A DNA stretch of 64,000 nt, from the sequence record OM632669.1, one strand, 5' to 3'. Shown here piece after piece: positions 25,537 through 36,057 of the stretch; positions within the stretch are counted from its first letter, which is position 1; each line of letters begins with the position of its first letter. Origin of the DNA: Escherichia phage BEU42. Both the position numbers and the translations under genes were made by a program. A model generated the notes under the pieces. The model ran no database searches. It worked only from the letters and a program-made list of their open reading frames with translations, and was not told the origin of the DNA.

Positions 25537-28500
25537 TTAGTGGGTAAGGTTGAACCAAGGATTGAGGGTAGGTGCTCTTAGTCCTTGTCCGAAGCCTAAT
25601 GAATAATCCAGTCTTCCTTCAGCCAGCATGGTTAACATGTTGTCCTGAATTGGTAGACCTACATTACCAAACATGGCAGGAGCGGGTACTACTGTAGCAA
25701 TCAGAGAATGTACTGGGTTGTTTCTAATCATGCTCATAGCAACTTTAATGGAACGAATCTTAAAGTTGTAGAACCACATCAGACCCATGCTTTCCATATA
25801 ACCACGGAAACGACCAGGCAATCTGTCATAGTTAACAAACTCTTCAGTTACTTGACCTAATGCTTCAGAAGAAGATTTTTTCTTACGTTTCACTAAATCA
25901 TCATAGATGATGGCTTTAGCAATGAAGTCTGAATACTCTACTGTTTTCTGGATACCCTGGAACAGAGCAGTGTCCTTAGCAATAAGAGCATAACGGCCAG
26001 CATTACGTACTTTTTCTGGAAGTTTATTAGCAAGTTTTTCCATGTACTCATGAATCTTACCTTCAGCTACTAACAGGTCATCACGACTAATACCAGCATC
26101 AGCAATAGAAGAGAACTCACCTGCTTCAATCAAAGGCCAGATGCTCATACGACGATGGCTATCAGTAATAGATTGAATCTCGGTTTTAAGTTTACGAACC
26201 AGATTAGGATTGCCTTCAGCAGCACGTAATTCTGCTTCTGCATCAATCTGACGTAAACGAGATTTAATGTACTGATTAATCTCTGACGTCTTACGAGGAA
26301 TGTTCACAGCAATATCCTTAACAGGAACACCACGTCCAATCATCTGGTAGATGTTAGCAAGGAAGTTAACTGCCGGTACTACAACAGATTTAACAACAAT
26401 TACTGTCTTAGCATCCTTCACCAAATTCTGAATGGTATTTTCAGCATTCATTACTACATGATATGCCTTATTACCAAATGCACCGAGGAACATCTTCTTA
26501 ACAGTATCAAGGGTGCTAGATGACCAACGAGAGTTACCAGTCCATACATCACCAATAGATGCAGCACGATAGCCAAGTGCATCATTCAGCATATCCCTAC
26601 GAACCCATAACTCATCTTTACCAAAGAGTTCTTCAGCCTTACGACGAGTCTCAATGTTCATCAGGTTAATTGCATCAGCCAGTACTGGGTCATCAATTTT
26701 ACCTAACAGGTTTACATATTGAGATTTATTAGCATTAGAGTCTTTAATGTCTTTCTCATACATAGCATGTAATTGCTCGATGAGAATGTCATTAAAACGT
26801 TGTGCTTTAGCCTCTTCCACCTGACGACCACGCCATACACCAACCATCTTAGCAAAATGATTGTCTTGGTTTAGATGCTTCAACATATTAGGGTCAACGG
26901 ATTGCTCATAAGCAACTACCTGACCTTTGCTGTTATAAATTGGCATCAGTGGTTCACGTCCACGTTCACCTTTAGCCAGAGCTTTGGTAATACGCTCTAC
27001 GGTTGGTTTGTCAGTAATACGACCAGCAACCATAGTACCTAACGTAAAGCCAGTACCAATATCCACGCCACCAGCAGTATTACGAACGTTCTGAAGAATA
27101 CCTTGAGAGTATGGGGCACGGGCAGCTACTGGGCTGAAGTAATAACCTTTAGAACCAGTACGGAAACCAGTGCTTCCCTGATAAGTACCAATACGAGTAA
27201 AAGATTGGCTATTTAACTTAGCAAACTCTTTATCGTCAGCAATAATCAAATTCACACCTTGCTGGTTCTCTACAGGGATATAGCCCTTAAAGTGATTCAG
27301 CAAAGTACGGTTATCACCTTTAGCTTTACGCATCTCTTCAGTACGTTGACCCACCATATAAGCAATGGAGAACTCCATACCTTCCACTTCTGATTGAGCC
27401 AATTCTGACAAAAGGTCGCGGTCAGACTTATTCATCAATTCCAGAGAGTACAAAGTAATGAGCTTATCAATAGCAGCTACATCTGCCACAGGACCATTAG
27501 TAATACGTTCACCTAACAAACGACTAATAGCATGGGCATTACGAAGGAGGTTATTACCTACTTCCCCTGTAATCATGTATTGAGCCAATTGCTTAGATTT
27601 CTTCTGAACCAGATTCCAGTTTCTACCTGCTTGGTTCTGAATCTCTTTTTCCAGAGTAGAGATTTCATCTTTCACTTTCTTAAATGAAGAGAGTAAATCT
27701 CTAATTTCAGCCATGCTCATAGTTTCACGTAGAACAGCTAAATCTGTTTTACCTAAACCAGTATGCATTGCAGACCACTCGGTATCAGTCAGTTTACGAG
27801 AGAACTTACCAGCAATGACTGTAGGTAAATGCTCACGGAATTGTTGACGGTCTTGAGAAATCTGGCTCTTAACCAATTTGATTAAGTCATAGACATTGGC
27901 ATTAGTCTTAGTACGGCCAACAATGTCATTAACTAAGTCATGGAAAGGTTGCCATACTTTACCCTGGTTCATAGCAGTCATAATACCCTGAGCCACTATT
28001 TCACCTTGTTTTTCAGATGCAATAGCAGCAGTCAGTTTAGCCAGATGAGCAACACCTTTAGCAGCTACATTAGAAGGGTTAGCAATTACCTTATCTGCCT
28101 TTTCAATAACAGTTTCAGATAACCGTTCAATGCTATCCGTTACGTACTGATTAGCACGGTCAATGAAATTACCGGTAGGGGTTGCTACAGCATCATAGAA
28201 AGACTCTCGTTTCAGAGCAGCAGCCATGATTGTTTCTGACAGAGCATCAATACTGTCCTGAACATTAGTAGCTTTCTGGTCACCAGCCATACGACGGTTC
28301 AGAGATTCCATTACCTGAGTGCCTGCATTGGTAAGCAGAGTATCTACATCATTACCTAATTTCTTATCTGCTTTAGGTACAGGCATTTCTTTAATGATTG
28401 AACGTAGTTCTTCATTAACCATAGCCAGACCCAGGAATGTAGGTAACAGACTGGTTCTGCCTTTGGCATCTACTTCAACCAGATTAGCACCAGAGATAGT

Positions 28501-36057: not shown

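Follow-up and report, generated by a model that had tools for sequence, protein, structure and literature searches.

The window examined here, 64,000 nucleotides (nt) of Escherichia phage BEU42 (OM632669.1), contains one large minus-strand open reading frame (ORF), 25537..36057, which belongs to gene gp50 and encodes a virion RNA polymerase (vRNAP) of the phage N4 type. The ORF runs in a single frame with zero internal stops for 3506 codons from its first possible start and occupies 16.4% of the window, as the first-pass annotation had described it (one uninterrupted 10.5-kb ORF, about 16%). Over this stretch, stops number 670 in the two remaining sense frames and 580 in the three antisense frames, 1250 in all. 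Because stops make up approximately 9.6% of codons in the two other sense frames, an open frame of 3500 codons cannot have arisen by chance. GC content at codon positions 1, 2, and 3 is 57%, 39%, and 31%. Gene order is that of N4, gp53-gp52-gp51-gp50 followed by the convergent pair gp48/gp49, with gp50 lying in the late structural operon, where gp52 and gp51, which encode ejection proteins, directly precede it.

A megablast search of 50,697 phage records with the whole ORF (10,521 nt) returned 100% nucleotide identity over 10,521 nt to Escherichia phages BEU5, BEU13, BEU14, BEU44, and BEU51 (within OM632664-OM632672; unannotated ‘UNVERIFIED_ORG’ records whose gp50 is 100% identical), 98.7–98.9% to eight other Enquatrovirus genomes, and 98.0%, across all 10,521 nt, to phage N4 (EF056009 / NC_008720). 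Every alignment consisted of one ungapped piece, and the matching records that are annotated mostly name the product ‘virion RNA polymerase’. The encoded protein is identical to N4 gp50 (AAO24831.2) at 3476 of 3500 residues (99.3%) with zero gaps. At the nucleotide level the two genes differ at 212 positions, evenly distributed along gp50 (3–17 per 500 nt), and in 209 codons, 185 of them synonymous and 24 non-synonymous. The 24 substitutions are mostly conservative (7 in residues 1–997, 6 in 998–2103, and 11 in 2104–3500), and none falls on a checked catalytic or promoter-recognition residue. On these counts gp50 is under strong purifying selection, and neither recombination or mosaic patches nor frameshifts are in evidence. 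A Schitoviridae vRNAP would be expected to be encoded by a single ORF of approximately 3400–3750 codons, collinear over its full length with N4 gp50, and this is what the window contains. The ORF is almost certainly gene 50 of an Enquatrovirus (the phage N4 species group), encoding a 3500-residue vRNAP translated from the ATG at 36039. The sequence holds nothing that contradicts an N4-type vRNAP, the hallmark of N4-like phages that the first-pass annotation had recognized, and the nucleotide and protein identities to N4 gp50 support it.

The domain layout of the protein was derived from phmmer searches of PDB sequences and from Pfam scans (E ≤ 0.1 for the whole protein; E ≤ 10 for the N-terminal domain and the C-terminal subdomains C1 and C2 separately), and residues were compared among seven proteins from two subfamilies (the window protein, N4, KP8, G7C, Moo19, inbricus, and Axy11). 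Full-length N4 vRNAP entries (9PNQ, 9PNR, 11GP, and others) match residues 1–3500, and the mini-vRNAP crystal structures 2PO4, 3C2P, and 3Q0A match residues 997–2103 (E = 0). Four N4-specific polymerase families, PF21867, PF21624, PF21894, and PF21769, lie within residues 1324–2058, in the central third of the protein, with E values of 8e-22 to 3e-97, far above the cut-offs; their Pfam names are vRNAP_dom_2, vRNAP_plug, N4_RNAP_helical, and vRNAP_dom. The alignment to N4 gp50 that had been proposed as a check located the residues of the catalytic motifs. The T7-like motifs expected of a central polymerase domain are represented by R1421 (T/DxxGR), D1556, K1667, Y1675, and D1948, each invariant in all seven proteins. 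Residues R1116 and W1126, which recognize the hairpin promoter (mini-vRNAP R119 and W129), are also present; W1126 is invariant in the seven, and R1116 is replaced by Lys in Axy11.

Identity to the proteins of other genera is 55–76% in the polymerase module, 58–72% in the C-terminal subdomains, and 52–66% over residues 131–906 of the N-terminal domain, falling to 34–65% over residues 1–130. Scanned alone against Pfam at E ≤ 10, the N-terminal domain, C1, and C2 gave sub-threshold noise only. In N4 the N-terminal domain is membrane-associating (PMC13434306), and C2 is autoinhibitory and required for encapsidation (PMC13434306, PMC13492108).

The first-pass annotation had placed a Ser/Thr/Lys/Glu-rich low-complexity linker about a quarter of the way into the protein, and linker 1 (residues 907–1006, 26–29% of the length) is found there. 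It comprises 16% Thr, 14% Glu, 12% Val, 12% Ser, 11% Lys, 8% Gln, and 8% Pro, these seven residue types accounting for 81% of the linker vs. 42% of the whole protein, and includes only 4 bulky hydrophobics per 100 residues. The second-lowest-entropy 60-residue segment of the protein falls within it, the lowest being the Gly/Ala-rich residues 417–476. Identity to other genera is 31–44%, and the region between fixed anchors spans 75 residues in Axy11, 111 here, and 375 in G7C. Among the long segments of Schitoviridae vRNAPs, linker 1 varies most, in length as well as in sequence; the short linker 2 is about equally variable in sequence. Since the composition of linker 1 is conserved across genera while its sequence is not, the segment fits a flexible tether. 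TRF detected no tandem arrays in the linker region, and only very short ones (15–38 nt, approximately 2–2.6 copies) elsewhere in the gene. The low-complexity linker has already been described by Bellis et al. 2026 (PMC13434306), and Narwal et al. 2026 reported two flexible linkers in N4 vRNAP (PMC13492108). In G7C, gp50 carries approximately 240 extra residues within linker 1 (141 + 99 residues, following the equivalents of window residues 972 and 993). The first part of the G7C linker segment includes a stretch that is not of low complexity (...YMQIGQYFDYNGKEYISLGKDIEGVRAV...) and hints at an inserted folded module.

Table I. Features of the gp50 locus in the BEU42 window
Feature	Coordinates	Strand	Basis or remark
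gp50 vRNAP coding sequence	25537..36039	-	3500 codons plus stop at 25537-25539; collinear with N4 AAO24831.2
ATG, accepted start	36037..36039	-	annotated N4 start; homologous starts in other genera
AGGAAA, Shine-Dalgarno-like	36046..36051	-	6-nt spacer to ATG
In-frame TTG, rejected start	36055..36057	-	no purine-rich Shine-Dalgarno-like sequence upstream
-10-like TATAGT, gp51-gp50 spacer	36080..36085	-	candidate weak late promoter, by inference only
Terminator-like hairpin AAAAGCCC-UUCG-GGGCUUUU plus U run, gp51-gp50	36099..36124	-	-11.2 kcal/mol, z -3.1
Bidirectional terminator hairpin between convergent gp49 and gp50	25511..25528	.	-15 kcal/mol, z -3.6
N-terminal domain, residues 1-906	33322..36039	-	Gly/Ala-rich and hydrophobic segments; no Pfam family
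Linker 1, residues 907-1006	33022..33321	-	T/E/V/S/K/Q/P-rich low-complexity tether
Polymerase domain (mini-vRNAP), residues 1007-2101	29737..33021	-	PDB matches, four Pfam families, motif residues
Catalytic Asp1556 (mini-vRNAP D559, motif A)	31372..31374	-	invariant in 7 proteins
Motif B Lys1667 ... Tyr1675 (mini-vRNAP K670, Y678)	31015..31041	-	alignment
Catalytic Asp1948 (mini-vRNAP D951, motif C)	30196..30198	-	invariant in 7 proteins
Linker 2, residues 2102-2123	29671..29736	-	18-56% identity to other genera, gaps; PMC13434306
C-terminal subdomain C1, residues 2124-2375	28915..29670	-	carries HELVH and Glu2310
C-terminal subdomain C2, residues 2376-3500	25540..28914	-	helical
gp53	38551..41106	-	N4 gene-order comparison
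gp52	38085..38537		N4 gene-order comparison
gp51	36140..38074		N4 gene-order comparison
gp49	25017..25502		convergent with gp50
gp48	24646..25017		convergent with gp50

Subdomain C1 contains an HExxH motif, HELVH (residues 2228–2232; 29344–29358), and a downstream glutamate, Glu2310 (29110–29112), in the segment LNEFMAWG. H2228, E2229, H2232, and E2310 are invariant in all seven proteins, across both subfamilies; Glu2310 is a candidate third metal ligand. The combination HExxH...NExxSD is the signature of thermolysin-type gluzincins, and C1 resembles it in spacing and in the NE context. The C1 region was assigned to the zincin-like peptidases by profile–profile search in Iyer et al. 2017 (PMC5512222), and the HExxH motif of N4 vRNAP was noted by Bellis et al. 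2026 (PMC13434306). If C1 were an active gluzincin-type protease, cutting the vRNAP linkers or a host protein after ejection, the giant ORF would encode a delivered polyprotein, more than a tethered polymerase. Such a role corresponds to the ‘polyvalent protein’ proposal put forward in Iyer et al. 2017 (PMC5512222), and would supplement, not replace, the vRNAP explanation. A single-sequence AlphaFold2 model of C1, although of low confidence (pLDDT 57.6), is in keeping with a protease in that β-strands precede the HExxH helix. However, no Pfam peptidase family matches C1 even at E ≤ 10, a profile of six C1 homologues has N4 vRNAP as its sole match among PDB sequences, and a Foldseek search of the PDB with the same low-confidence model likewise returned only N4 vRNAP (9PNR/9PNT, TM 0.41) and no peptidase. 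In the literature, moreover, N4 vRNAP is an unprocessed 3500-residue chain whose recombinant full-length form shows no degradation, and its C-terminal domain is characterized as an autoinhibitory module. A post-ejection protease role for C1 is unlikely.

Direct reading of the 5′ end of the gene gives an in-frame TGA (36078–36076), TTG (36057–36055), AGGAAA (36051–36046), and ATG (36039–36037), in that order. The start codon had been called ambiguous in the first-pass annotation, between a ‘first ATG’ at 36057 lacking a ribosome-binding site and a second ATG at 36039 that is preceded by AGGAAA and yields exactly 3500 residues. Reading and translation bear out the description of the second codon, and no Shine-Dalgarno-like sequence lies upstream of the first. 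The codon at 36057–36055, however, is TTG and had been misread as ATG, so the ambiguity that rested on it falls away; the comparative evidence largely settles the start.

Translation from this TTG would give a product of 3506 residues, extended by (M)YRKPT, with the expected N-terminus MYRKPTMSVFDR.... The TTG is the first ATG/GTG/TTG codon following the in-frame TGA, and both it and the open frame up to the ATG are retained in KP8, G7C, St11Ph5, and Moo19. Nevertheless, it is the ATG, and not the TTG, that has a Shine-Dalgarno-like sequence in front of it, and AGGAA is the same in N4, KP8, G7C, St11Ph5, and Moo19 (St11Ph5 has T as the sixth base). In a tblastn comparison with a query that included 12 upstream codons, the annotated starts of KP8, G7C, St11Ph5, Moo19, and inbricus map to the codon homologous to ATG 36039. 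Five genera, Axy11 among them (annotated protein, MSTFDRLAGY), have the N-terminus MS[VT]FDRLAG, and inbricus has MPSTFDRLAG, so that in six annotated records of other genera the protein starts either at the ATG equivalent to 36039 or with the shared N-terminal peptide. Upstream of its start the inbricus gene has unrelated sequence, yet the inbricus and Axy11 proteins share the (M)...FDRLAG N-terminus. Finally, four genera share a conserved nucleotide sequence in the 100-nt spacer between gp51 and gp50. Within it GATATAAGTTTG is invariant in all four, N4 through Moo19, whereas the coding sequence immediately 3′ of this leader already carries synonymous changes between genera, which is the pattern of regulatory DNA and not of codons. 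Initiation at the TTG is very improbable, and the ATG at 36039, giving 3500 residues, is favored by the Shine-Dalgarno-like site, the N4 annotation, the homologous starts, and the conservation of the leader.

In the spacer (36040–36139, minus strand), a terminator-like hairpin is followed by a TATAGT-like element and then by the leader GATATAAGTTTG..AGGAAAC. The spacer, its hairpin included, is more strongly conserved than the adjacent coding sequence in Enquatrovirus, Kaypoctavirus, Gamaleyavirus, and Moovirus. Scanning for sigma-70 promoters gave none in the spacer and, inside gp50, fewer promoter-like sites than in shuffled sequences. The leader folds no better than shuffles (z -0.9), and its motif has no second copy elsewhere in the window; for want of repetition it was rejected as a general late-promoter consensus. 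The spacer may be a dedicated attenuator or promoter for gp50. Its terminator may limit read-through from the more abundant ejection-protein genes upstream, which fits the 4 ± 1 vRNAP copies per virion measured in N4 (PMC13434306). The two longest antisense ORFs within gp50 (33394..33810, 138 residues; 29164..29550, 128 residues) were rejected as genes, because they are no longer than codon-order shuffles predict (mean longest off-frame ORF, 151 residues; at least 138 residues in 58% of shuffles).

In N4, vRNAP is packaged in the virion and injected (PMC13434306, PMC13492108, PMC4496689). The BEU42 protein is a chain of loosely tethered modules, in which the N-terminal domain, a disordered linker of 100 residues, the T7-like RNA polymerase, the short linker 2, and the C-terminal domain (2124–3500) follow one another. 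By analogy with N4, a few copies would be packaged by means of their C-terminal domain. At infection, gp52 and gp51 are expected to exit first and to form a channel across the envelope, after which vRNAP would thread through the tail as ‘beads on a string’, in a channel of approximately 30–35 Å. The N-terminal domain, with membrane helices predicted at 224–278, could anchor it at the inner membrane. There the enzyme would recognize DNA-hairpin promoters that are extruded by gyrase and stabilized by host SSB, its transcription of the early genes would pull the genome in, and the C-terminal domain would keep it autoinhibited until promoter binding. Packaging, ejection, hairpin-promoter use, and autoinhibition are in this account carried over from published work on N4 vRNAP (99.3% identical), while the identity, the domain layout, the catalytic and promoter-recognition residues, the start codon, and the flanking terminators come from the present analysis. 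As far as the sequence can tell, all features on which the mechanism depends are intact in the window gp50.

Several points qualify this assignment. A literature search, which did not cover the likeliest papers, yielded no direct N-terminal protein data for the ATG at 36039, and recombinant vRNAP constructs are uninformative on the native start. The generic Pfam family of T7 (phage/mitochondrial) RNA polymerases is not among the matches at E ≤ 0.1, so the relationship to T7 rests on the conserved motif residues and the published crystal structures. The early-promoter hairpin P2, GAAGCGGAGCTTC, located at 559–571 in N4, does not occur in the window above chance. Because P2 falls within 3.7 kb that the window lacks, the enzyme and its promoter cannot be checked together; its lack reflects the window or its assembly, not the gp50 gene.

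Compared with its closest relatives the window has three clean gaps, and the quality of the source is not beyond doubt, but the chance that the long ORF is itself an assembly artifact, or consists of separate genes fused by sequencing errors, is vanishingly small. All three gaps lie outside gp50, which matches five records at every base and is collinear, free of indels, with 13 more at 98–99% (zero frameshifts against these 18 related genomes, a check raised in the first-pass annotation). Six other genera have annotated proteins of this length, and N4 vRNAP, a protein of 383 kDa, has been purified and its structure solved. On sequence comparison, collinearity with independent genomes refutes an artifact.

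As a whole, the window represents an N4-type genome that is circularly permuted, running through N4 7177–69890 and then N4 3447–6645. Apart from the gaps, which remove 2526, 102, and 3710 nt that BEU5 carries, it matches BEU5 at 100% identity (99.96% in a single block of 31.6 kb), gp50 being the same in both. At 8283/8284 the window lacks precisely the 2526 nt of a rIIA-like gene (N4 15460–17985), from the start ATG through the complete stop codon, and rIIB (8283..10373) consequently begins with GTG behind the rIIA ribosome-binding site. The GenBank record of BEU51 has the same junction, but places rIIA at its very start, so that the gap looks like a record or assembly artifact and not like biology. 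At approximately 39905–39907, an in-frame segment of 102 nt present in BEU5 and N4 is missing, and gp53, the tail plug protein, loses 34 residues (MDDLKKNK...NTAKEY). The gp53 ORF stays open across this gap, and microhomology at the junction is only 2 nt. At 60802 the window jumps from N4 69890 to 3447, omitting 3710 nt of BEU5 (N4 69891–70153 and 1–3446) with the genome ends, the terminal repeats, gp72, the end of gp71, gp1–gp10, part of gp11, and P2 (N4 559–571). A phage without this segment should be non-viable, and an assembly collapse is likely here. All three gaps are probably assembly or record artifacts.

Elsewhere in the window, a 703-nt insertion relative to N4 (14957–15658) lies within the family-A DNA polymerase gene. 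Its ORF (14995..15609, plus strand) encodes a homing endonuclease with HNH_3 and NUMOD4 domains and splits the polymerase into an ORF ending at 15092 and another at 15572..16402. BEU5 carries the insertion too, and the annotations of VEc25, AL25, Pollock, SP5M, and others list an ‘HNH homing endonuclease’ flanked by two DNA polymerase genes. Four plus-strand tRNA genes (Asn-GUU, Ser-UGA, Thr-UGU, and Pro-UGG) at 23466–24144 occupy a 1.5-kb stretch without an ORF of at least 110 residues (longest, 70), and the counterpart is unannotated in N4 EF056009. In gp50, the codons TCT, ACT, and CCT are strongly preferred, making up 49–61% of Ser, Thr, and Pro codons.

The vRNAP gene was already known, N4 vRNAP having been a model enzyme for decades, and the full-length structure, domain map, low-complexity linker, and HExxH motif of the N4 protein were all in print by 2026. 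As a discovery the present identification carries little weight. The gains are practical: the window can be confidently annotated as an N4-species phage, the gp50 start is set at 36039 and the misreading of TTG corrected, and three probable assembly or record gaps are located elsewhere in the source sequence.

Among known systems, jumbo phages also inject a packaged RNA polymerase for early transcription. The virion RNA polymerases of crAss-like phages follow the same strategy, a packaged polymerase being injected to start early transcription (PMC13434306). In both groups folds and subunit compositions differ from those of vRNAP, and the tests made here gave no homology to it. The T7-like single-subunit enzymes (T7 RNA polymerase, mitochondrial RNA polymerase, and N4 RNAPII, gp15/gp16) share with vRNAP, according to the literature, the right-hand fold and the T/DxxGR, A, B, and C motifs. 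By comparison, vRNAP is approximately four times larger, has added N- and C-terminal domains, and has a sequence similarity to them too weak for a generic Pfam match. It differs further in using single-stranded DNA-hairpin promoters together with host SSB, and in being packaged and injected. The other Schitoviridae vRNAPs (KP8, G7C, Moo19, inbricus, and Axy11; DEV gp71) display the same module order, and their N-terminal peptide, HExxH motif, and catalytic residues are conserved. Closest of all is N4 gp50 (AAO24831.2; 9PNQ/9PNR/11GP and 2PO4/3C2P/3Q0A), which has the same length of 3500 residues, the same start, and the same gene neighborhood as the BEU42 protein, and is identical to it at the functional residues checked.

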